From contig OZ219786.1 in the NCBI GenBank assembly GCA_964291285.2, positions 768,001 through 832,000 on the forward strand: a stretch of 64,000 bases of DNA, in the 5' to 3' direction. The DNA is from Alphaproteobacteria bacterium. GTDB lineage: Bacteria; Pseudomonadota; Alphaproteobacteria; Bin95. The notes below the pieces were generated by a model that searched no databases, had not been told where the DNA came from, and worked only from the letters and a program-made list of their open reading frames with translations. Position numbers and translations under genes: made by a program. This document shows positions 811-18,047 of the stretch, piece by piece; the stretch's first letter is position 1, and the number at the start of each line of letters is the position of its first letter.

Positions 811-1955
811 TCAAGCCTCCAGCACGGCGCTCATGGCCTGCCCGACGCGTTCCGCGGCGGCTTCGATGTCGCGGTCGGCGAGATGGGCATAGCGCAGCGT
901 CATCCTCACATTGGAATGCCCGAGCAGGCGGGAGACCACCGGGACGGGCACGCCGTTCATGACGGCATGGCTCGCCATGGTATGCCGGAGATCATGAAGG
1001 CGGACATCCCCGATGCCGGCTTCGCGTCTGACGCGGTACCAGAGCGGCAGGTCCGGGCTGCGCGGGCGGGCGGGGTCGCACGGCGAGGGAAACACGAACG
1101 GGCTGCCCGCGCGCGGCTGCCGGTCGAGAATGGCCCGGGCCCGGCTGCCGAGCGGGACCGTCCTCGGCCTCGTCTTGGCATCGGTGAGCGCCAACCCGTC
1201 CTCGCGGACTTCCGACCAGCCGAGGCCCGTGATCTCGCTTCTGCGGCAGCCGTCAGCAGCAGGAGGCGGACGATGTCGGCCTGCTGCCGCGCGCTCTTCC
1301 GGGTCTGCGCGTCCAGGGCGGCATGGAGGCGTGCGAGTTCCTCCCGGGACAGGAACCGCGTGAGCGCCGTGCGACGGTTCGGGGCGATGCGCCCGACGGG
1401 ATTGACCTCGATGTGGCCGCAGGCGAGGGCGAAGTTGATGATCTGGTGAAGGAGGGCGAAAGCGCGGTTGGCGCCGCCCGGCGCGGTCCGGCTGTAACGG
1501 TCGAACCATTGCCGGACATGGCCCGGCGCAATGCGGTCGAGCGGCTTCGGGCCGAATGCCGGCAGGAGCTGGCCCGCAAGCTGATAGCGGGCGGTCCTCT
1601 GCGTCGAGGGCTTGCAGCGGTCGAAATGCGCCTCCTTCCACGGGCCCGCGACGAAATCCCGGAACAGCGGGACCGGCCCCGCGCGCACGGCCCTTGCGCC
1701 GGGCTCGGGGTTCGCCTTGCGGGCATGGCGTTCCCTGCGAACCTCCTCCAGGCTCTTCACGCCGACCGGGCCGAGCGAGACGCGCCTGGTGCGCCCGCCG
1801 CTGTCGAGCAGCAGCACCCAGCTGCGCCCGCCGGTGGGCCGCACCCGGACGCCAAGGCCGGCGATGCGCGTGTCCCGGACCGTATATTCCCGCCCGCGGG
1901 GGCGGAGACGGGCGACGGCGGCGTCGGTGAGTTTCATCCGTTCCCGGCCCGCCAT
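811..1955 (-). pseudogene. Tyrosine recombinase/integrase with N-terminal arm-binding domain, frameshifted at about 1250
   Basis: N-term KLTDAAVARLRP..YTVRDTRIAGLGVRVRPTGGRSW; LLLLT/GCRRSEI is split by a 1-nt loss (ACG GC TGC); C-terminal frame has HDLRHT, LLGH and TLRY. Confidence 0.85.
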
Positions 1956-1958
1956 CGC

Positions 1959-2655
1959 TCAATCCCCCACCAGCGCCGCGCCGACGGTCTCGGCGGCGTC
2001 CTGCACCATGGCGTCGGCGACATGGGTATATTTCAGCGTGGTTTCCGGCCTGCGGTGGCCCAGCAGCCGGCCGATGGCGAGCACCGTCTCGCCCTGCCTG
2101 AGGGCAAGGCTCGCATGCGTATGGCGCAGGTCGTGAAGGCGGGCGTCCTCCAGGTCCGCCTCGGCGCGGACCCGGTTCCAGAAGTGGAACAGCCAGCTTC
2201 CGCTCCGGGGCCGGTCGCCCCTCGATGCCGGGAATATCCACCGCCCCTTCCGCTCGAGACGATCAAGCACCGTCCGGGCCGGCTCCGACAGCCAGACTGT
2301 CCGGGGTTCCGTCTTGGAATCGCGCAGGAACAGGCGGCCTTCGCGGTAGTCGGACCATTGCAGGGTGAGGATCTCGCCCTTGCGGCAGCCGGTCAGCAGC
2401 AGCAGGCGGATGACGGCGACATGCTGCGGCCAGCGGGCCTCATGCGCCTTGAGCCTCCCGGACAGGCGGTGGATTTCCTCGTCCGGGAGGAACCGCTCAC
2501 GGCCCTTGCGGCGGTAGCGCCTGATCCCCCGGCAGGGGTTGGACCCTTCCGGGCGCAGGCCCATGGCCTCCGCCTCCCTCATGATGACGGACAGCACCGG
2601 CATGGAGCGGTCCGCCGCCACCGGCAGCGCGCAGGCTGGCGAACCAGTTCCTTAC
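1959..2655 (-). pseudogene. Second tyrosine recombinase, N-terminally deleted, with a frameshift near 2625
   Basis: LLLLTGCRKGEI, DSKT, HDLRHTHAS, LLGH and TLKY are intact; the upstream VRNWFASLRA is out of frame and the arm domain is absent. Confidence 0.8.
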
Positions 2656-2958
2656 CTCCCGCGCGATCGCCGCCGGCCTGAGGCCGGCCTCGAAGGCGGC
2701 GAGGATCGGCTTTTCCTGCCCCTGCGTCACCGGCGCGGGCCTGGCGTGCACCCTTCCTCCAGCCGTCTTGCCGGCCTGCCGCCCGCGCCTGCGGGCCTCG
2801 GCTGTCGCCGCTTCGACCGGCCGGTCGAGGTCCGCGTCGTCGAGATGGCGGAGCGAGCGGTCGAGGTCGGCGGGCAGGGCGAATGCGCCCGACCGGCTCC
2901 CGCCGCGCTTTCCCGTCTCGCCACCCGGGCGCGCCGTCCTTCCTGCGCGTTGCCCCAC
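2656..2958 (-). pseudogene. Truncated small hypothetical (possible HTH) protein fused by deletion to the integrase remnant
   Basis: LPADLDRSLRHLDDADLDR..VTQGQEKPILAAFEAGLRPAAIARE runs directly into integrase sequence VRNWFASL. Confidence 0.4.
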
Positions 2959-3223
2959 CTCCGCGGTTTTTCCTGTCGCCAGTGAGCGCGTCGCGTGTGC
3001 GCTGGTCGATTGCAGCCCGAACGTGCCGGTGTGGCCATGGCCGGGGCGCTTTCCAGCTACCCGTCACCCGTGCCGCCGGCCTGCCGCCCGACGCCGGGAA
3101 CACCGCCTCCCCCGCTCCGCGCCGGCAGGAGGGAAGGTCTGGCCGTGAGCGGGGCGGCGGTCGGCGCTTCGGAGGGCGGGGCGCTGCCGCCGGGTTTCAC
3201 CACGGCACGATGGAGACGGCAGC

Positions 3224-3556
3224 ATGACGGCAGCAAGGATGGCGATGCCCGGCAATACGGCGAGCACGTTTCTGGTCCACTATTTCGGCGGCGGCCTCGA
3301 CGGCGACGACCGCTTCGTGGTCGAGCGGTTCCGCGCCCTGGCCTGCGGCGACATTCGTCCGGTCCGGGACGGCGAGGAGAACGCGAAGGGGCGGCGCAAG
3401 GTCGGGCGCACCGTGGTCTCGCGCAAGGAAGCCGAGGCGATGCGCCCGGAGCGCACCGAGATCATCATCTGCACCGGCCTTCGCACCCGTGGCGGGAAAC
3501 AGGCCTGGGGTTCGGTTGCGGCGGGCCTCCTGTGCGACCGCAAGCAGCGCGGCTGA
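3224..3556 (+). CDS. Hypothetical protein (110 aa)
   Basis: GGAG RBS upstream of ATG; protein-like composition; co-oriented with the next gene. Confidence 0.55.
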   Translation: MTAARMAMPGNTASTFLVHYFGGGLDGDDRFVVERFRALACGDIRPVRDGEENAKGRRKVGRTVVSRKEAEAMRPERTEIIICTGLRTRGGKQAWGSVAAGLLCDRKQRG

Positions 3557-3643
3557 GCGCTTTCCCGAAGGACGTCCCGCCGGCCCGGCCGGGTCGGCCG
3601 GGCGTCCCTCTTCCGTTTTCCCCACGGCAAGGAGAACGCTCCC

Positions 3644-10751: not shown

Positions 10752-12447
10752 CCTAAATCCGGCAGTTGACGAGCTTGATCGCTGTCTCGGGGTAGTGTGA
10801 ACGGTCGGATTTGGGCGTGGATTTCAGCACGTGGTCGCGGCCCTGGGTGGCGGCAGCCAGGGTTGACGCCCCGGTTCGCGGCCATGGAGGTATTTCCTGA
10901 GCGCCTCGGCGAGGATGCGGCGCCAGCGATCCCCGGCGCTCAACTGCTCCGCAGTTTGCGTCAGCGACCGGAAGAAGCCGGCGATCCGGCGCAGCGCCGC
11001 CATCACCGTCTTGCGACGCCCGTGATGGGAGGTCACCGTCAGCCGGGTCTGGCCGGCGTGGTGGGTCTGGCGGGCAACCCCGTGCAGGAGCAGCGGCCGG
11101 CTGGTGATCGCCTCGCGGTGATGGTCGGGGTCGGCGAGGCGCACGAACAGGCTCCACCAGTTGTAGATGAGCGCGATCAGCCGGGCCATGTGCCGGCAGC
11201 GCGTCAGGTCGCGCGTGGTGAAGCCGCCCCAACCCCACTGGTTCTTCAACTCGTCGAAGCCGTTCTCCGCGTCCGCCCGGTCGCGGTAGAGCTGGGCCAG
11301 CGAGCGTATCTCCAGGTCCAGCGAGGTCGCCAGCACCGCGAACTCCCACACCCCGGTGCCGGGCTGCGCCTCGGTCCAGAACAGCTCGCCCTGGGCCTTG
11401 TCGCCACGCGTCAGCGCCAGCGTCGCAGGAAGCCGCCGACGCAGCACCACAACCCGGCGCGTCCGGCTCCAGCCCTGCAGACGCAGATCGGCCCCGATCC
11501 CCGACCAGCCCTGGCCTGCATCCTCCCAGCCGTCCCGCACCATCAGCCGCTCGGCAAGCCGGCGCGCCCCCTTCGTCAGGCGCAGCTTGAACAAATAGTC
11601 CAGACCCGCAGCCTCGCACGACGCCATGTTGGCCTCGCTGCCCCAGTCCTTATCGCCCCGCACCAGACGCGGCCAGCGATCCCGACCGAGACGGTCGAGC
11701 AACGCCCACAAGGACGGCGCCGCGCGCCTCGAATGGTGATGGTTGCCCGGCGCCACCTCGACATCCAGAACAAGCCGCGTGCCCGCCATCAGGAACGCAT
11801 GGCAGGCATGCGAGGGGCGGCCCGGCTTCTTCGGGTTGTAGCTCACAACCGCCCCCTCCTGACGACCGTAAAGCGCCTTGATCGTCGTGTCGCAGTCCAG
11901 AACCCACGGCTCCCTCAGCAGCGGACGGACCACCTCGTCCAGATGGCCCTGAAGCCACGATGTGCCGACATCCGCACCGATCCGCTCCAGACCGCGCCGC
12001 ACCGAATCCTCGCTCGCAACCTTGTCCATACCCAGCAGCGCAGGGTTCACCCCGTCGCCGCGCAGCGACGTGATGTGCGCATAGCGAGACTGCCCCGCCA
12101 GAACCGACAGAAGAACCGTCCCCAGGACATCCCGCTTCGACGGCGCGTTCGGGCTCGTGTAGTGCAGCGGGCAGTCCGCAACCAAAGCGTCAAAGCGACC
12201 GCTTACCTTCAGGTATTCCGAGAAAAACGCCAGATGCCCCAGCGGCGTCACCGCCGCATCAGGGTCCCATTCCACATGAACCGCGCCGCCGAAGGTGTCC
12301 ACCTTCACCGACGCTCGGGCGACATCCCGCACAGCGCCAGGATAATCACCCAAAGGGTGAGCCTCTTCGGCCCCTGAAAAGCCGCTCATACCCGCAGACT
12401 ACAAGGGATTCGGCAAGGCCAAGCCATCCTCAACTGCCGGATTTAGG
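10752..12447 (-). mobile_element. IS1380-family element, copy 2 (intact)
   Basis: Perfect 18-bp IRs CCTAAATCCGGCAGTTGA; 5-bp target duplication GTGAA at 10747-10751 and 12448-12452. Confidence 0.92.
10824..12389 (-). CDS. IS1380-family DDE transposase (521 aa)
   Basis: Uninterrupted ORF filling the element; D..D..E motifs as in copy 1. Confidence 0.9.
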   Translation of the reverse strand: MSGFSGAEEAHPLGDYPGAVRDVARASVKVDTFGGAVHVEWDPDAAVTPLGHLAFFSEYLKVSGRFDALVADCPLHYTSPNAPSKRDVLGTVLLSVLAGQSRYAHITSLRGDGVNPALLGMDKVASEDSVRRGLERIGADVGTSWLQGHLDEVVRPLLREPWVLDCDTTIKALYGRQEGAVVSYNPKKPGRPSHACHAFLMAGTRLVLDVEVAPGNHHHSRRAAPSLWALLDRLGRDRWPRLVRGDKDWGSEANMASCEAAGLDYLFKLRLTKGARRLAERLMVRDGWEDAGQGWSGIGADLRLQGWSRTRRVVVLRRRLPATLALTRGDKAQGELFWTEAQPGTGVWEFAVLATSLDLEIRSLAQLYRDRADAENGFDELKNQWGWGGFTTRDLTRCRHMARLIALIYNWWSLFVRLADPDHHREAITSRPLLLHGVARQTHHAGQTRLTVTSHHGRRKTVMAALRRIAGFFRSLTQTAEQLSAGDRWRRILAEALRKYLHGREPGRQPWLPPPRAATTC

Positions 12448-12538: not shown

Positions 12539-13858
12539 TCAGACGCCCGCGGCGAAGAGCGCGAGGCCGGCGAGCGCGGCGGCGGCCAGCGTACGGAATG
12601 CGCCGAGCTTCAGCACGAAGAGCGCGACGGCGGCGAGGGCGGCCAGCGCGAGCGCCTTGAGGTCGAGGCTTGCCGGGTCCGGCAGATAGACGGAGACGGG
12701 GCCCGCTTGCGCGCGCGCGCCCTCTGCGAACAGCACGTTGAGCGCGAACCAGGCCGAGAGGTTGGCGATCACGCCCACCACGGCGGCCGTCACGCCGGCA
12801 AGCGCGGCCTGCAGTCCGGGCCGGCCGCGCAGCCGCTCGACATGCGGGGCGCCGGCGAAGATGAACAGGAAGCAGGGCGCGAAGGTGACCCATAGCGTGA
12901 GCCCCGCGCCGAGCAGCCCCGCGACCAGGGGGTCGAGCCCGCCCGCCTCGCGCCATGCCGCGAGGAAGCCGACGAATTCCACCACGAGGATGAGCGGCCC
13001 CGGCGTCGTCTCGGCGAGCCCGAGCGCATCCAGCATCTCGCCGGGCGCCAGCCAGCCCCTCGCGGCGACGGCCTCCTGCGCGACCCAGGAGAGTACGGCG
13101 TAGGCACCGCCGAAGGTCAGCACCGCCATCTTGGAGAAGAAGACCGCGATGCCGGAGAACACATGCCCGCCGCCGAGCCAGGCCAGCAGCAAGGCGGTCG
13201 GCAGGAGCCAGGCCGCGAGCAGGACGAGCGCCGCCCTGCCCGTGCCGGCGGCGGCTTGCGACCGGGCCGGGGCCGCCGCCTCCCCTGCCCCGCTCCCGCC
13301 GCCGAAAAACGCCCGCGCGCCGCCCAGCAGCGCCGCCGCGGCGATGACGGTCGGGAAGGGCGCGTCGAACAGGAAGAGCGCGGCGAACGCCCCGCAGGCC
13401 AGCAGCCAGGCGAAACCGTCCCTGAGCGCCCGCGCGCCGATCCGGAGCAGCGCTTCCACCACCAGCGCCAGCACCGCCGCCTTGACGCCGAGGAAGGCCG
13501 CCTCGACCGCCGGCAGCCGCCCGTAGAGCGCATACACCGCCGCGAGCGCGGCCATCACGACCGCGCCCGGCAGGATGAACAGCAGGCCTGCCGCGAGGCC
13601 GCCGCGTATGCCGTGCAGCAGCCAGCCGGCATAGGTGGCGAGTTGCTGCGCTTCCGGCCCCGGCAGCAGCATGCAGAAATTGAGCGCATGGAGGAAACGC
13701 GGCTCGTCGAGCCAGCGCTTCTCCTCCACCGCGACGCGGTGCATGAGCGCGATCTGCGCCGCCGGCCCGCCGAAACTGGCGAACCCGATCCGCGTCCAGG
13801 CCGCAAGCGCCTCCCGGAACGGGACGGGCGCGGCCGGCGGCGGCGTCTCCGCGCTCAG
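12539..13858 (-). CDS. chrA: Chromate efflux transporter (long-chain CHR family)
   Basis: IGFASFGGPAAQIALMH, LLPGPEAQQLA, TFGGAYAVL and ETTPGPLI; homology extends upstream of the track's ATG, so a CTG start overlapping the upstream TGA is inferred. Confidence 0.9.
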   Translation of the reverse strand: MSAETPPPAAPVPFREALAAWTRIGFASFGGPAAQIALMHRVAVEEKRWLDEPRFLHALNFCMLLPGPEAQQLATYAGWLLHGIRGGLAAGLLFILPGAVVMAALAAVYALYGRLPAVEAAFLGVKAAVLALVVEALLRIGARALRDGFAWLLACGAFAALFLFDAPFPTVIAAAALLGGARAFFGGGSGAGEAAAPARSQAAAGTGRAALVLLAAWLLPTALLLAWLGGGHVFSGIAVFFSKMAVLTFGGAYAVLSWVAQEAVAARGWLAPGEMLDALGLAETTPGPLILVVEFVGFLAAWREAGGLDPLVAGLLGAGLTLWVTFAPCFLFIFAGAPHVERLRGRPGLQAALAGVTAAVVGVIANLSAWFALNVLFAEGARAQAGPVSVYLPDPASLDLKALALAALAAVALFVLKLGAFRTLAAAALAGLALFAAGV

Positions 13859-14607
13859 CCGTCCCAGACCTGCTCGGGAAGCGGCAGGCCGCGGAAGTCC
13901 CCGGCGCCGAGCGGGCCGTCGGTCTCGATGCCGAGCATGTCGTGGATCAGCATCAGCTGCCGCACATGCTGGGCCGGGTGCCAGACCGTGCGCTCGAACA
14001 CCTCATGCAGCGCGTGCGCGCCGTAATAGGTGTCCACCGGGTCCGGTTTCGGCCCCGACTCCCACCAGCGGGCGACCCGCGCGCGCACCTCCTCGCCATA
14101 GGCCACGATGTCCGCCACGGTTTTCATGTCGTCGGGCGGCGGCGCGGTCAGCGCCTCGTAGTTGACGGGCTCGCCGCTCTCCATCGCCGAGATCGTTGCG
14201 TCCGCAATGTTGAAGATGTGGTGGAACAGGACCCGGTAGGCGCGGTCGCGGCCGGGCAGCTTGTCGCCGAGCCGGTCGTCCGGCACCTGGGCCACGTAGC
14301 GCGCGGCGGCAGCGAGCACCATGTCGAGCTTCGCCGCCAGCTCGGGCATGGAGAGCGCCGGCCCCACATCCTCGTCGAGGCCGAGAAACGCCACCACGTC
14401 CGAGATCGCCTGGGCGAAGACGAAATCCCCGCCGCGCGAGACGACCGGGATGGAGCGCGCGCCAAGCTCGCGCAGCATGTCCATGCCGGTCGGATGGGTC
14501 GTCACGTCGATACTGTCGAACTCGATCCCACGGACCGAGAGGAACTCCTTGGTTCTCAGGCAGCTGGTTCAGCCGGGCCGCCAGAAAACCCTGATCGCCT
14601 CGCTCAT
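13855..14607 (-). CDS. Putative selenoprotein: UxxC glutaredoxin/NrdH-like domain fused to a DinB-like domain (250 aa)
   Basis: GAGGAGG RBS, ATG 14607, MSEAIRVFWRPG-TGA-TSCLRTKEFLSVRGIEFDSIDV..GARSIPVV; TGA at 14571-14569 lies at the first Cys of the Grx CxxC; C-terminal LFHH..WHPAQHVRQL DinB-type His motifs. Confidence 0.85.
14535..14559 (-). promoter_or_regulatory. Candidate bacterial SECIS hairpin
   Basis: Starts 9 nt after the UGA: CUGA-GAAC-[CAAGGA]-GUUC-CUC-UCGG, with G residues in the apical loop; folded by eye only. Confidence 0.5.
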
Positions 14608-14857
14608 GCGCGTTCCTCCTCAGCCGTTGCGCGGCCCATCATAAGCGCATCGCCCGCCCCCGGCCACGGTTTCCCGGCAGGCCCCGTCCGGCAGCGGGCC
14701 ATTGCTGCCCCGCCCGCTTCTCCCTCCGCGCCGTGTTCCTCCCCTCCCGCCGCCAATTTGGTACAGACCGGCGGCGCCAACGCCGCCAATCGTAACGTTC
14801 GCCGCGTCCAGCGCGGCGGCGGGCGAAGCCCCGCAACCCTCTGCGCGCGCCGCGAGG

Positions 14858-14893
14858 CCCTCCCCCGACCCCTCCCGCCCAGCGGGAGGGGAG
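14858..14893 (+). repeat. Alphaproteobacterial REP-like hairpin
   Basis: CCCTCCCCCGACCCCTCCCGC-CCA-GCGGGAGGGGAG in the divergent intergenic region. Confidence 0.55.
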
Positions 14894-15001
14894 AAAAGCC
14901 GGCCGACCCCCGCTCGGCTTCGACAATTCGACAAGCCGATTGCGGCCCGCCCCTCCGTGCCCTAACCTCGCCCCAGGTGCGGAGAGGGGGTTCCCGACGC
15001 G

Positions 15002-15568
15002 ATGTCATTCCCGGCAATGCTCGAAAGGCTCGAGACCGGGCTTGCGTGGGTAAACGACCGCATGATGGTGGGCCTGAAATGGCTCGCGATCGTCCTGCTC
15101 GCGATCATGCTGATCATCGTCGATATCGCCGTGTTCATGCGCTACGTGATGAACGACGCGCTCGCCTGGTCGGAAGAGATCGCCAAGTTCGTCATGGTGT
15201 GGCTGACCTTCTTCGTGGCGCCCATCGGCTTGCGCATGGGCGCGCATGTCGGCATCGAGGTGATCCTCGGCCAGCTGCGCGGGCGGCTTCGCCAGTTCCT
15301 CATCATGATGATCTTCGCCGGCATCATCGCGCTCATGGTGGTGTTCATAAAGGAAGGGGCGTTCATGACCTGGAACGCCCGCATCCAGCGCGCCTCCACC
15401 ATCGATATCTCGATCTTCTACGTCTACATCTGCATGCCGGTCGGCAGCTTCGCCGTCGCGATGGTGGCGCTGGAATACATGGTCAACGCGCTCCGGGGCG
15501 TCATAGACCCGGCCAATGCGAAGCCGACGCTGACGCAGACGCAGCAGGACGCGGTCAGGGCGGACTGA
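15002..15568 (+). CDS. dctQ: TRAP transporter small permease
   Basis: VFMRYV, WSEEIAK, HVGIE; four TM helices. Confidence 0.9.
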   Translation: MSFPAMLERLETGLAWVNDRMMVGLKWLAIVLLAIMLIIVDIAVFMRYVMNDALAWSEEIAKFVMVWLTFFVAPIGLRMGAHVGIEVILGQLRGRLRQFLIMMIFAGIIALMVVFIKEGAFMTWNARIQRASTIDISIFYVYICMPVGSFAVAMVALEYMVNALRGVIDPANAKPTLTQTQQDAVRAD

Positions 15569-15589
15569 CGGAGGCAACGGGCGGAACCC

Positions 15590-16900
15590 ATGGGCGTCAC
15601 CTTCTTCTGGATATTCCTCGCCGCGATGTTCATCGGCATGCCGATCGTCTTCGCGCTCGGCTTTGCGCCGATGGTGGGCTTCCTGCTGGCGGAGAAGCCG
15701 ATCTTCCTGAAGATGCTGTTCCAGCGCACCTTCGCCGGCATCCACCAGTTCCCGCTGCTCGCGATCCCCTTCTTCATCCTGACGGGCGAGGTGATGAACC
15801 GGGCCGGCATCACGATGAGCCTGGTCAATTTCGCCAACACGCTGGTCGGCCACCTGCGCGGCGGCCTCGCGCACGTGAACATCGTCACCAGCATGCTGTT
15901 CGCCGGCATCAGCGGCTCCGCTGTCGCCGACACCTCGGCGGTCGGCTCGATCCTGATCCCGGCGATGGAGAAGGACGGCTACAGCCGCAAATTCGCCGCC
16001 GCCATCACGGCGGCCTCCTCGGTCATCGGCCCGATCATCCCGCCGAGCCTCATCATGGTGGTCTATGCCTTCATCATGAACGTCTCGGTGGCCGGGCTGT
16101 TCGCCGCCGGGCTCATCCCGGGGCTCATGGTCGGCTTCATGCTGATGTCGGTGACCGGCATCATCTCCAAGCGGCGCAACTACCCGAAGGCGCACAGCCG
16201 CGCGACCGTGAAGGAAGTCGGCACTGCGGCCTGGGGCGCGGTGCTGCCGCTGATGACGCCGGTCATCATCCTGGGCGGCATCCTCGGCGGCATCTTCACG
16301 CCGACCGAGTCGGCGGCGGCGGCGGCCTTCTATGCGCTGTTCATCAGCCTCATCGTGCTGCGCACGCTGAAGTTCCGCGACCTGCCGGACCTGTTCCTCC
16401 ACGCGGCCGTCACCTCCGGCGCGATCCTGCTGATCATCGGCACCGCGACGGCCTTCGCCGCCATAGCCAGCCTCTCGCAGGTGCCGGTCCACCTGTCCAA
16501 CTTCTTCTTCTCCATCACCAGCGACCCGCTGCTGCTGCTGTTCTTCATCAACGTGCTGCTGCTGATCGTCGGCATGTTCCTCGACGCCGGCCCGGCCATC
16601 CTGATCCTCGGCCCGATCCTGGCGCCGACCATGACGGGTCTCGGCGTCGATCCGCTGCATTTCGCCGTCATCATGTGCATCAACCTGACGATCGGGCTCG
16701 CGACGCCGCCGATGGGTCTGATCCTGTTCGTCGCTTCCGGCATATCGCGATTGCGCGTCGAGGTGATCGCGCTCGAAATGCTGCCGCTGCTCGCAGTCGA
16801 AATCCTTGCAATTTTTGTCGTGACCTATTTCCCGGTCATCTCCATGTCGCTGCCTTACTGGCTCGGCTTCACCAGAAACGCGCCGGGTTTCTTCGTGTGA
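15590..16900 (+). CDS. dctM: TRAP transporter large permease
   Basis: LLAIPFFILTG, GGLAHV, SGSAVAD, IIPPS and TPPMG. Confidence 0.93.
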   Translation: MGVTFFWIFLAAMFIGMPIVFALGFAPMVGFLLAEKPIFLKMLFQRTFAGIHQFPLLAIPFFILTGEVMNRAGITMSLVNFANTLVGHLRGGLAHVNIVTSMLFAGISGSAVADTSAVGSILIPAMEKDGYSRKFAAAITAASSVIGPIIPPSLIMVVYAFIMNVSVAGLFAAGLIPGLMVGFMLMSVTGIISKRRNYPKAHSRATVKEVGTAAWGAVLPLMTPVIILGGILGGIFTPTESAAAAAFYALFISLIVLRTLKFRDLPDLFLHAAVTSGAILLIIGTATAFAAIASLSQVPVHLSNFFFSITSDPLLLLFFINVLLLIVGMFLDAGPAILILGPILAPTMTGLGVDPLHFAVIMCINLTIGLATPPMGLILFVASGISRLRVEVIALEMLPLLAVEILAIFVVTYFPVISMSLPYWLGFTRNAPGFFV

Positions 16901-16991
16901 CGCAGCGCCTGGAGGACATCCGGCCCGAAGACATCTGGCCGGAACACCGCCGCAATCCCGCGGCTTCGACTACTCCGAAGGGAGGAGGAAG

Positions 16992-18047
16992 ATGAAAAAA
17001 CATCTGGAACTGCTTGCTTCGGCCGGGCTGGGCCTGGCCGTCGCGCTCGGCGGAGCCGGCATGGCCGGCGCGGCGGATACGACGATCAAGATCTGCCATA
17101 TCGGCTCGACCGACGACGAGGACCACAAGGGCTCGCTCGTCTTCGAGAACTTCGTCGAGTCGCAGACCAACGGCGCGGTGGAAGTCGAGATCTACCCGGC
17201 CGGGCAGCTTTGCGGCAATTTCCGCCAGTGCCTCGAATCGGTCCAGCTCGGCACCTGCGAGATCACGGGAACGACCGTCGGCGGCATCGCCAACATCTTC
17301 CCGGAAATCCAGGTCACCGACCTGCCCTACATCTTCCCGAACGACCGCGTCGCCGAGAAGGTGATGAAGAGCCCGTTCATGGACGAGGTCCGCAGGGCGG
17401 TGCTCGAGAAGACCGGCACGCTGAGGCTCATGGGCCTCAACAATACGGGCGGCTGGCGCGACTTCTTCACCATCGACGTCACCATCAAGACGCCGGCCGA
17501 CCTTGCGGGCGTGAAGATGCGCACCATCGAGTCGCCGCTGCAGGTCGAGATGGTCAACCTGATGGGCGGCAACCCGACGCCGATTCCGTGGCAGGAGCTC
17601 TACACCTCGCTCGCCACGGGCGTCGTGATCGGCACCAAGAACGGCATCACCGACATCGTGAACATGAAGTTCCACGAATTTCTGAACCGGGTGACGCTCG
17701 ACCACCACGCCTACATGTTCCTGTTCTGGTGGATGAACGACGACTTCCTGCAGGGCCTTTCGCCCGACCTGAAGCGGGTTGTCGCGGCCGGCTTCCACCA
17801 CATGACCTCGATGGCCTCGGACGACCCGAAGTTCACGGCGCTCGCCGGCTATGCGGCCTTCAAGGAGAAGGGCGGCCAGGTCTATGTGCCGACGCCCGAG
17901 GAGAAGGCGCAGTTCGTCGAGTCCGTCCAGCCGCTGAAGCAGTGGTATGTGGAGCGCTTCGGCGACAAGTGGCTGAAGCTGCTTGAGGAATCCATCGCCC
18001 AGGCGGAGAAGGAAATCGAGGAAGAGGACGCGAGGCTGCTCAACTAG
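16992..18047 (+). CDS. dctP: TRAP transporter substrate-binding protein
   Basis: GGAGGAGG RBS; signal peptide; VEIYPAGQL, DLPYIF, DLAGVKMR and ELYTSLATGV. Confidence 0.9.
   Translation: MKKHLELLASAGLGLAVALGGAGMAGAADTTIKICHIGSTDDEDHKGSLVFENFVESQTNGAVEVEIYPAGQLCGNFRQCLESVQLGTCEITGTTVGGIANIFPEIQVTDLPYIFPNDRVAEKVMKSPFMDEVRRAVLEKTGTLRLMGLNNTGGWRDFFTIDVTIKTPADLAGVKMRTIESPLQVEMVNLMGGNPTPIPWQELYTSLATGVVIGTKNGITDIVNMKFHEFLNRVTLDHHAYMFLFWWMNDDFLQGLSPDLKRVVAAGFHHMTSMASDDPKFTALAGYAAFKEKGGQVYVPTPEEKAQFVESVQPLKQWYVERFGDKWLKLLEESIAQAEKEIEEEDARLLN

Follow-up and report, generated by a model that had tools for sequence, protein, structure and literature searches.

On the minus strand of the window, the 64,000-nucleotide stretch of DNA analysed here, an ATG behind a Shine-Dalgarno-like sequence opens a reading frame that meets a TGA triplet at its thirteenth codon. 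Does this triplet end a short frame, or is it decoded as selenocysteine (Sec) within a longer protein? Judged from the sequence and its relatives, positions 13855-14607 very probably hold a genuine gene for a Sec-decoded selenoprotein with glutaredoxin-like and DinB-type domains.

Reading frame and conservation of the in-frame UGA

The elements of the reading frame are as follows:
14615-14621, minus strand: Shine-Dalgarno-like GAGGAGG, read directly, 7 nt upstream of the start codon
13855-14607, minus strand: predicted full selenoprotein coding sequence, 250 codons including Sec13, open when TGA is translated as U and with full-length homologs carrying one in-frame TGA
14569-14571, minus strand: putative Sec codon UGA, codon 13; of 111 loci, 67 have TGA here and 43 have TGC/TGT
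14560-14571, minus strand: redox motif U13-T14-S15-C16, positions 13 and 16 invariant in alignments A1, A3 and A4
14484-14505, minus strand: false internal starts, GTG 14503-14505 and ATG 14482-14484, used in the ORF list and in database entries

The first-pass annotation had described a GAGGAGG ribosome-binding site, an ATG at 14607, 12 codons, a TGA and the residues T-S-C, and all of these were confirmed by direct reading. The GAGGAGG is followed after 7 nt by ATG 14605-14607, codons 1-12 (MSEAIRVFWRPG) are all sense codons, and the TGA at 14569-14571 precedes ACC AGC TGC (T-S-C). Translation with TGA read as U gave the single read-through frame of 250 amino acids that had been proposed, unbroken up to a terminal TGA at 13855-13857. 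The ORF track indeed begins at 14505 and loses the active site: the mechanical ORF list starts at GTG 14503-14505 and yields an ORF of 216 amino acids, while the 209-amino acid forms in the databases start at the equivalent of Met42 (ATG 14482-14484 here). Gene callers routinely cut this glutaredoxin–DinB gene short because the Sec codon is taken for a stop.

Homologs were examined for Cys or TGA at codon 13, as the first-pass annotation had suggested, and both occur. Relatives number at least 538, of which 80 were listed, and the codon-13 tally spans 111 homologous loci: 67 carry TGA, 42 TGC and 1 TGT, and in 1 the motif was not found. TGA stands at the identical codon in 30/30 relatives' loci, and conservation of its position is far beyond chance (30/30 and 67/111 loci). 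Of 61 related genomes, 40 gave a full-length match containing one and only one TGA, at identities down to 47%. Cys homologs have C-T-S-C or C-S-S-C at the site of the redox motif; all 101 full-length database homologs among 120 have Cys there, 100 reading C-T-S (the printed sequence of one ended ahead of the second Cys) and 1 reading C-S-S-C. The UGA thus aligns with a Cys codon and is conserved on both flanks, as in other bacterial selenoprotein genes.

The reading used by the mechanical ORF list, and by all 19 of the closest database entries (179-216 aa), is an ordinary UGA stop, with a true product of 209-216 residues made from an internal ATG or GTG and comprising the DinB domain only; the 12 upstream codons would then be a chance ORF or a leader peptide. 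The internal starts fall within the thioredoxin fold, so that such a product would open with a broken glutaredoxin domain. Moreover, the codons between the ATG and the internal starts are kept as protein and vary synonymously. On both sides of the TGA the amino acids of the flanking codons are preserved with 2-6 synonymous codons in use, and in the alignments the N-terminal stretch of the Sec forms pairs residue for residue with the N-termini of the Cys homologs, the TGA falling on the catalytic Cys. We consider a DinB-only product very improbable.

A SECIS-type hairpin and the selenocysteine machinery

If codon 13 is decoded as Sec, a selenocysteine insertion element is expected downstream of it. 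The following candidate was found:
14521-14539, minus strand: bacterial SECIS-type hairpin, 7-bp core plus an outer C-G pair (8 bp), based on folding, RNAalifold and the freezing of synonymous sites

The first-pass annotation had placed a hairpin 9 nt after the UGA. In the minimum-energy fold that structure proved to be no more than a 3-bp element; shuffled sequences fold as well as the 66-nt stretch does (z = −0.85), and RNAalifold recovers no such hairpin across relatives. A SECIS-type hairpin is nevertheless present and conserved, at 14521-14539. It begins 29-30 nt after the UGA, inside codons 23-29, where it overlaps S24-V25-R26-G27-I28-E29, and presents the apical loop GUG (14529-14531) 37 nt after the UGA, with a folding energy of −10.8 kcal/mol. 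Across relatives it was the only consensus helix returned by RNAalifold, with 95.4% of alignment cells paired versus 17-62% when the partners were slid. A compensatory change from U-A to G-C was seen in 5 of 27 sequences, double compensation being confined to one base pair. Of 50 distinct TGA forms, 49 fold into the hairpin; in the 43 Cys forms no hairpin is fixed at this place. The TGA form L122 folds instead into another, weaker hairpin (−7.4 kcal/mol).

Codon usage under the hairpin follows the same division. Among Sec forms carrying the majority residue, a single codon is used at each of positions +11 to +14 (Ser 47/47, Val 45/45, Arg 53/53 and Gly 51/51), and this freeze of synonymous sites is limited to TGA forms. 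Part of the conservation of the hairpin could be at the protein level, since it sits in coding sequence. The bSECIS criteria quoted from PMC13188914 comprise a loop of 3-9 nt, a stem of 4-16 bp, a distance of 16-37 nt from the UGA, a G within the first two loop positions and a minimum free energy of −7.5 kcal/mol or lower. The GUG loop, the 7-8 bp stem, the distance of 37 nt and the energy of −10.8 kcal/mol all lie within these bounds, the spacing being the longest that the published model allows. An Rfam scan of 14400-14700 returned no match, with two sub-threshold hits attributable to chance.

The genome search for selA, selB, selC and selD proposed with the first-pass annotation recovered the complete set. 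A tRNA-Sec (72.5 bits, anticodon TCA) is present together with selA (535 bits), selB (436 bits) and selD (277 bits), the SelD of this genome being a 737-aa Ndh–SelD fusion. In addition, selA scored above its cut-off in 5/5 other TGA-form genomes versus 1/5 of the Cys-form genomes tested.

Some UGA codons are known to be leaky towards near-cognate tRNAs, and the UGA could conceivably be read through by a Cys or Trp tRNA, at least under low selenium. Near-cognate readthrough does not explain a SECIS-type hairpin conserved in TGA forms only, nor a full Sec machinery in the genome, nor a selA that tracks the TGA forms (5/5 versus 1/5), and we regard it as a very slight prospect next to Sec decoding.

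The accuracy of the TGA itself was assessed in public data. The first-pass annotation had named reads with TGC or TGT at codon 13 as evidence against its proposal; in contigs of four public runs, no base difference from the window falls at the TGA among those listed (41 rows of the difference table lie outside these). Contigs from RNA libraries of two studies span the UGA and extend upstream of the ATG, which is not proof of transcription. TGC or TGT becomes TGA by a change of one base, and the locus could in principle be a Cys-form gene turned pseudogene by a nonsense mutation, or an artefact of assembly or sequencing. Such a reading has a negligible probability, given that 53 distinct coding sequences, spread over several genera and families, share the TGA, that it recurs in an independent contig from a sponge metagenome with 19 differences elsewhere, and that it is everywhere the only TGA of a match whose remaining frame is intact.

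Domain architecture and relation to known families

The predicted protein of 250 residues divides into two domains:
14419-14592, minus strand: glutaredoxin/NrdH-like thioredoxin-fold domain, Pfam PF00462, residues 6-63
13894-14349, minus strand: DinB/YfiT-type four-helix-bundle domain, residues about 87-238, from Pfam, AlphaFold (AF2) and Foldseek
14218-14220, minus strand: His130, first of a putative metal-binding His triad, invariant in A1 and A3 and at least 90% conserved in A4
13966-13980, minus strand: His210-x-x-x-His214 within the motif E-R-x-x-W-H-x-x-Q-H-x-R-Q, conserved in A4

The two-domain reading of the first-pass annotation, a UxxC glutaredoxin-like domain joined to a DinB-type domain with a His triad, was borne out by Pfam, alignments, the AF2 model and Foldseek. 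Residues 6-63 match Glutaredoxin (PF00462; 40.2 bits, gathering cut-off 22.9, E = 4e-10), and both the C/UxxC motif and the cis-Pro of the thioredoxin fold are present. Residues 128-218 match DinB_2 (PF12867; 29.3 bits, gathering cut-off 24.8, E = 1.3e-6), with the four-helix bundle and the H...HxxxH histidines of that family. The AF2 model (pLDDT 94.6, pTM 0.90) predicts an NrdH/Grx-like fold, extending to about residue 76, that packs on a DinB/YfiT bundle with helices at residues 87-106, 124-144, 164-183 and 200-225. In PDB profile searches the N-terminal domain matched Grx 7c10, BC3987 3zij and NrdH 1h75. Foldseek matches to the DinB domain were DR0053 6iz2 (TM 0.83), BH3987 2f22, YizA 2qe9 and YfiT 1rxq, with target TM scores of 0.67-0.83. 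In the diverse alignment A4, whose sequences are 30-47% identical to the query, C13, C16, the cis-Pro P54, H214, R216 and Q217 are invariant, and E205, R206, W209, H210, Q213 and H130 are at least 90% conserved; the putative triad consists of H130, H210 and H214.

Sec-containing glutaredoxins (PF00462, UxxC) are known prokaryotic selenoproteins (Table 1 of PMC13188914; PMC1088965; PMC2398784). As these sources describe them, they share with the window protein a thioredoxin fold, a Sec in the first position of UxxC, CxxC homologs and a SECIS just downstream within the coding sequence. They are described there as small and single-domain, whereas the window protein adds a DinB-type domain of about 165 residues and has an unusual U-T-S-C motif. 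Unlike them, it also falls under every NCBIfam cut-off for Grx, NrdH and UXX-star proteins. The NrdH-redoxin models were missed (TIGR02194, 44.5 versus 85.75 bits; NF007657, 35.2 versus 131 bits), as were the UXX-star models (NF041212, 31.7 versus 66 bits; NF041211, 24.3 versus 100; NF047338, 22.9 versus 97; NF041114, 13.4 versus 72), and scores against the classical Grx models TIGR02181 and NF007923 were far under their cut-offs. The best match, over residues 4-80, is to NrdH-redoxin/BC3987-type proteins (1h75, 3zij/3zit; Foldseek to 3zit, TM 0.85, rmsd 1.5 Å), which differ in that they carry no second domain; the searches made turned up no Sec form of NrdH.

The C-terminal domain shares the four-helix bundle and H...HxxxH metal triad of the DinB/YfiT S-transferase-like (STL) proteins (BstA/YfiT, MST, DR0053), with 12-15% identity to solved members. 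Known STL members differ from the window protein in being single-domain proteins, most of them homodimeric, that rely on a free low-molecular-weight thiol. An STL member that is a selenoprotein or a redoxin fusion was not found in the literature searched, nor was a characterised example of the glutaredoxin–DinB fusion, in agreement with the first-pass annotation. Cys-type glutathione S-transferases (GSTs; omega class, LigG) have the same order of a thioredoxin-fold nucleophile domain followed by an all-helical domain. Membership in the canonical GSTs was considered and rejected, with full-length Foldseek rmsd values of 10.7-17 Å at TM of about 0.3 and no GST Pfam hit; the likeness is at most an analogy because the helical domains are unrelated folds.

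UxxC redoxin selenoproteins are already known, but the two-domain glutaredoxin–DinB family is absent from the selenoprotein lists examined, although selenoproteins named 'Grx' or 'Grx-like' in marine surveys, compared by description only, may include N-terminal fragments of it. Neither the 2026 review nor the GOS paper nor the deep-Sep paper contains the word 'DinB' (0 occurrences in each). Among database proteins, the 19 closest (179-216 aa) start inside the glutaredoxin fold and are called 'DinB family protein' where named. Because no NCBIfam model captures the family, its close database Sec forms are all truncated to 209 aa, with loss of the active site. The family is of some size: clustering at 50% identity gave 125 clusters (E ≤ 1e-30), and among the best 150 representatives 61 start just past the Sec site. 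Its hosts are Alphaproteobacteria that are uncultured and MAGs labelled as Burkholderiales; the version in the window is present in sponge, coral and marine metagenomes. A phylum-wide sample of 401 genomes held one further match, and says little on distribution since it was apparently drawn mostly from the same class.

Possible function and the chrA neighbour

Passages of PMC5815605 and PMC10950700 describe DinB/STL enzymes as metal-dependent thiol S-transferases in which three histidines are the sole invariant residues, and, according to the latter, their physiological substrates are still unidentified. In the favoured account, UGA codon 13 of the window gene is very probably decoded as Sec by the genome's own SelA, SelB, SelD and tRNA-Sec, directed by the in-frame SECIS hairpin with its GUG loop 37 nt past the UGA. 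The NrdH/glutaredoxin-like domain would carry Sec in the attacking position of U-T-S-C. The DinB/YfiT (S-transferase-like) bundle, with its three-histidine metal site (H130, H210, H214), would hold a divalent metal together with a substrate that is electrophilic or oxidised, as mycothiol and bacillithiol S-transferases do. The selenolate/thiol pair of the tethered glutaredoxin-like domain may then attack the substrate or resolve the resulting adduct, and the Se-S bond so formed would be recycled by cellular reductants, which may be glutathione, thioredoxin reductase or others. Overall, the protein could serve as a self-contained selenol-dependent transferase or reductase in detoxification or redox repair.

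Taken as a whole, the explanation that joins Sec decoding, an in-frame SECIS and two tightly packed domains is highly likely to be the correct one. A role as a thiol/selenol transferase or reductase along the lines above, which we infer, has about an even chance. Direct action of the tethered Sec at the metal site is rather unlikely. It is also unlikely, though conceivable, that the protein represents the first selenoprotein of the DinB/YfiT superfamily, in which a redoxin-tethered selenolate replaces the free low-molecular-weight thiol at the three-His centre, as a cofactor-independent, convergent counterpart of the Cys-type GSTs. Larger fusions were uninformative as functional hints, comprising three singletons (MmgE/PrpD, a transposase and GNAT).

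The glutaredoxin-like domain could instead be an electron-transferring, NrdH-like disulfide reductase, with the DinB domain as a non-catalytic adaptor or sensor; the protein would then be a specialised redoxin. In sequence and in fold the N-terminal domain is indeed closest to NrdH, BC3987 and Grx, and many of the UxxC selenoproteins in Table 1 of PMC13188914 are plain redoxins. At 30-47% identity to the query, however, conservation of the His triad and of E-R-x-x-W-H-x-x-Q-H-x-R-Q is as strict as that of CxxC, which argues for a working metal site, and a specialised redoxin is to our minds an unlikely description of the protein.

The transferase or reductase reading must also be weighed against the immediate neighbourhood of the gene:
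12539-13858, minus strand: chrA, chromate-transporter family, Pfam PF02417, downstream of the selenoprotein gene

The chrA frame stays open as far as a CTG, which shares bases with the TGA stop of the selenoprotein gene (C-TGA). In 15 of 17 loci of the window's genus (g1), no ATG, GTG or TTG lies ahead of the conserved ChrA N-terminus, and in the other 2 the sole candidate is too far in. The chrA start in this genus therefore appears to be the CTG that overlaps the selenoprotein stop. Because chrA lies directly downstream in all g1 loci with the C-TGA overlap conserved, and because conserved arginines (R206, R216 and others) could bind an anion, the protein might reduce or handle oxyanions (chromate, selenite, arsenate) jointly with the ChrA-family transporter. 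The linkage is restricted to this one genus: chrA was found in none of the other lineages examined, whose neighbours are unrelated (GST, thiolase, DUF1223, PEP mutase), and a joint oxyanion function seems improbable. A Pfam survey of 69 neighbouring ORFs at 12 loci gave no shared operon partner, although its greedy ORF choice may miss genes in GC-rich loci.

If the CTG start is true, translation of the transporter could hinge on Sec insertion and hence on selenium supply. For the study of Sec decoding, the glutaredoxin–DinB family would supply a clean SECIS example whose spacing, at 37 nt, is unusually long. Recognising the family would correct many annotations and would tie selenium to the poorly understood DinB/STL enzymes.

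The read-through frame and its UGA codon

The start of the selenoprotein gene could be read directly in the sequence, in agreement with the first-pass annotation, and comprises the following elements:

14615-14621, reverse strand: Shine-Dalgarno-like GAGGAGG, 7 nt upstream of the ATG
14605-14607, reverse strand: ATG start codon, opening the selenoprotein frame
14569-14571, reverse strand: in-frame TGA (codon 13), followed by ACC AGC TGC

Twelve codons, MSEAIRVFWRPG, lie between ATG and TGA, and reading through the TGA yields a 250-codon frame that ends at a second TGA (13855-13857, reverse strand). In the mechanical ORF list the frame opens only at GTG 14505 (216 aa), which leaves out the active-site motif, as had been pointed out. 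Both domains of the proposed fusion were recovered above the Pfam cut-offs, Glutaredoxin at residues 6-63 (40.2 bits vs. 22.9) and DinB_2 at residues 128-218 (29.3 bits vs. 24.8). Ribosome-binding site, frame, ORF start and domains being as described, the earlier description was therefore correct except for its hairpin.

In 40 of 61 related genomes (the window's own included), the frame was matched over its full length with a single in-frame TGA, identities ranging from 47% to 100%. In all 30 loci fetched from this search the TGA occupied the identical codon, in the context …VFW[R/Q]P[G/H/A]-U-T-S-C-L…, and the dozen residues upstream were conserved as protein. The best 80 of 538 relatives from a scan of species-representative genomes were also taken into the codon count. 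The proposed check of homologs for Cys or TGA at codon 13 returned TGA in 67 of 111 loci and a Cys codon in 43 (TGC 42, TGT 1), the motif not being found in 1; these loci are partly redundant, some genomes having been fetched twice, and represent 50 TGA and 43 Cys forms as distinct 66-nt stretches. A set of 120 database proteins comprised 19 close homologs, the nearest ones at 79-98% identity, with lengths of 179-216 aa and starts inside the glutaredoxin fold, and 101 full-length homologs (50-58% identity), all with Cys at the site, as C-T-S in 100 and C-S-S-C in 1 (six of the 100 fell outside the search pattern and were read from the printed sequence, one print ending before the second Cys). 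In 53 distinct Sec coding sequences (L122, a divergent TGA form, left out), Val at −6 from the TGA (53/53) is encoded by 4 synonymous codons, Leu at +4 (53/53) by 5 and Arg at +5 (52/53) by 6. Judged by this synonymous variation, the codons on either side of the TGA show coding behavior.

The search of the window's genome (6.1 Mb, 5 contigs) for Sec machinery recovered every component sought: tRNA-Sec (72.5 bits; ARAGORN calls it tRNA-SeC and gives the anticodon TCA), selA (535 bits), selB directly after it (436 bits), and selD (277 bits) within a 737-aa Ndh-SelD fusion. The latter (1351-3564 of the locus from this genome, L018, minus strand) joins an NADH-dehydrogenase-like domain to SelD, and its C-G-G-C motif identifies it as Cys-type. 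Ndh-SelD is common in aquatic bacteria according to a passage of the GOS survey (PMC2398784). In other genomes, selA scored above the cut-off in five of five with the TGA form versus one of five with the Cys form, the completeness of the latter five not being given.

Data from 12 studies (20 public runs), chiefly metagenomes of sponges, corals and marine samples, contained the stretch in whole or in part. For four of these runs, two of DNA and two of RNA libraries, contigs were aligned to it, and among the differences listed for them none fell at 14569-14571. An independent sponge-metagenome contig spans the entire stretch with 19 differences, all elsewhere than the TGA. Contigs (14341-14619 and 14414-14673) from the RNA libraries of two studies span the UGA and extend upstream of the ATG, which is compatible with, though not proof of, a transcript that includes the N-terminus.

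The SECIS-type hairpin

The first-pass annotation had placed a hairpin 9 nt after the UGA. In folding, the 66 nt 3′ of the UGA do not outperform shuffled sequences (z = −0.85), and this small hairpin, 8-9 nt from the UGA and not conserved, was rejected as a conserved element. The conserved element sits elsewhere:

14521-14539, reverse strand: SECIS-type hairpin (C)UCGGUCC-GUG-GGAUCGA(G), conserved in TGA forms

This hairpin (−10.8 kcal/mol) was found in 49 of the 50 distinct TGA forms, the loop-closing pair being open in two of these. At this position the 43 Cys forms encode another peptide (mostly T-R-H-G-V-D), their codons vary, and they lack a fixed hairpin. From +11 to +14, each Sec form that keeps the Ser, Val, Arg or Gly uses a single synonymous codon (TCG 47/47, GTC 45/45, CGT 53/53 and GGG 51/51). 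For the same residues the rest of the gene draws on 3-6 codons, and the Cys forms vary at +11 to +14. Of 51 distinct 78-nt segments, 27 were aligned as RNA (near-duplicates picked by eye, plus L122, account for the other 24), and from this alignment RNAalifold returned the 14521-14539 hairpin as the sole consensus helix. Paired cells made up 95.4% of the hairpin alignment, versus 17-62% with partners slid, and one pair covaries (U-A 19, G-C 5, U-G 3) with a score reached by 0 of 500 shuffles, although both controls, slide and shuffle, exaggerate significance when the sequences are related. The bacterial SECIS model is quoted with a loop of 3-9 nt and a stem of 4-16 bp (PMC13188914, Fig. 2 legend), and with G in the first two loop positions, a spacing of 16-37 nt and an MFE of at most −7.5 kcal/mol (PMC13188914). 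The hairpin lies within the four constraints quoted there, its 37-nt spacing being the upper limit. Rfam matched nothing at the hairpin region.

The sole TGA form lacking the usual hairpin, L122 from a Rhodospirillaceae-labelled MAG, has one of its own (GUU loop, 23 nt after the UGA, −7.4 kcal/mol) and forms a long branch beside the Cys clade in a quick tree; its SECIS may have been acquired independently. Short contigs of other organisms that have nothing but the hairpin core in common with the stretch raise its depth in the bin 14513-14543, by about 2.6-fold and 6-fold. These sponge metagenome and metatranscriptome contigs (41-88 nt) match within 14513-14551, and their loose ends read as the Sec context of another homolog.

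Protein fold, proposed function and gene neighborhood

An AlphaFold2 model from a 102-sequence alignment (mean pLDDT 94.6, pTM 0.90; 251 residues, the last an artefact of the terminal TGA being read) predicted a β-α thioredoxin fold at residues 5-75 and a helical bundle (helices 87-106, 124-144, 164-183 and 200-225). With Foldseek the bundle matched the DinB/YfiT proteins DR0053 (6iz2, TM 0.83), BH3987 (2f22), YizA (2qe9) and YfiT (1rxq), and the N-domain matched BC3987 (3zit, TM 0.85) and Grx2; full-length matches to GSTs had an rmsd of 10.7-17 Å and resemble the selenoprotein in domain order only. A PDB profile search retrieved Grx 7c10 (E 1.3e-9), BC3987 and NrdH, and no NCBIfam model reached its cut-off (NrdH 44.5 vs. 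85.75, UXX-star 31.7 vs. 66). Among 52 diverse representatives (30-47% identity with the query, from 53 covering both ends; P0147, 201 aa, omitted), C13, C16, P54, G196, H214, R216 and Q217 were invariant, and S15, K20, E21, H130, W181, E205, R206, W209, H210, Q213 and a G-L-P-x-P motif were at least 90% conserved. The redox motif and the His triad (H130/H210/H214) are therefore both under selection.

Passages of PMC5815605 and PMC10950700 describe the DinB/STL superfamily as holding a divalent metal with three histidines, the sole invariant residues of eight B. subtilis enzymes that are all metal-dependent bacillithiol S-transferases; in MST, mycothiol is bound at the metal. The simplest reading of a redoxin joined to a DinB-type domain, with Sec attacking, would be a selenol/thiol-dependent transferase or reductase. 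The metal site of the DinB domain would bind a substrate that is electrophilic or oxidised, Sec would be the attacking position of UxxC, and the adduct would be resolved by Cys16 as a selenenylsulfide; the tethered Sec could either act at the metal site itself or only recycle the product.

Neighbors gave no functional hint among the loci compared and differ by lineage, with chrA in the window, a GST (L038), an AIR-synthase-family gene (L071), DUF1223 (L081), and elsewhere thiolase, PEP mutase and others. Larger fusions of the family were singletons only. In L071, from a Burkholderiales-labelled MAG, the AIR-synthase-family gene (PF00586/PF02769; 2338-3927, forward strand) lies directly upstream of the TGA-form gene (~4001), which an AhpC/TSA gene also adjoins; the AIR-synthase family includes SelD.

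In the window, chrA (12539-13858, reverse strand) lies downstream, with the conserved N-terminus …FREALAAWTRIGFASFGGP…. No ATG, GTG or TTG precedes this N-terminus in 15 of the 17 loci of the window's genus (L021-L037), and in the other two the single such codon lies too deep in the frame. All 17 conserve a CTG that overlaps the TGA stop of the selenoprotein gene (C-TGA; 13855-13861), and extending the chrA frame to it recovers Pfam profile positions 4-165, versus 27-165. Speculatively, chrA may be translationally coupled from this CTG start, and ChrA synthesis would then be tied to read-through of the Sec codon. Just beyond chrA is a DDE transposase (PF13701/PF01609, 521 aa; 10827-12389, reverse strand), and the long ORF antisense to it (10797-12377, forward strand) is probably an artefact of high GC content. 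Divergent from the selenoprotein gene runs a TRAP transporter operon (DctQ, DctM, DctP; 15002-18044, forward strand), and the intergenic stretch 14608-15001 (~390 nt) would contain the promoters of both, provided that they do not share one.

Evolution and annotation of the family

For a quick maximum-likelihood tree, 96 distinct proteins (53 Sec, 43 Cys) were used, with the site masked and L088 dropped as too short. Sec and Cys labels were split by one branch (100% SH-aLRT), so that one switch suffices in this unrooted tree of the best 80 loci plus relatives.

No description of a glutaredoxin-DinB fusion selenoprotein was found in the literature searched on prokaryotic selenoproteins and DinB/YfiT S-transferases. 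Sec-Grx and Grx-like families are given in passages of a 2026 review of prokaryotic selenoproteins (PMC13188914) and of the GOS, Sargasso and deep-Sep papers, and neither "DinB" nor "PF12867" occurs in those of the review, the GOS paper and the deep-Sep paper. We therefore rated the protein as having a new two-domain architecture among UxxC redoxin selenoproteins. Fragments of the glutaredoxin-DinB family could be present among the marine selenoproteins classed as "Grx" in these surveys.

The representatives library contains 1020 matches at E ≤ 1e-3, of which 125 also pass E ≤ 1e-30. Two of its proteins, P0224 and P0151, have Gly or Leu at the Sec/Cys position and keep the SECIS-encoding peptide S-V-R-G-I-E; they could be errors, products of other gene-calling codes or decayed Sec forms. 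Among the best 150 of the 1020, 79 cover the site with C..C and 61 begin just after it, 51 of these reaching the C-terminus; the remainder are 5 DinB-only fragments, 2 with another residue at the site and 3 other cases. Such starts just after the site are the signature of gene callers restarting past the TGA. The annotation of the glutaredoxin-DinB selenoprotein family is systematically wrong.
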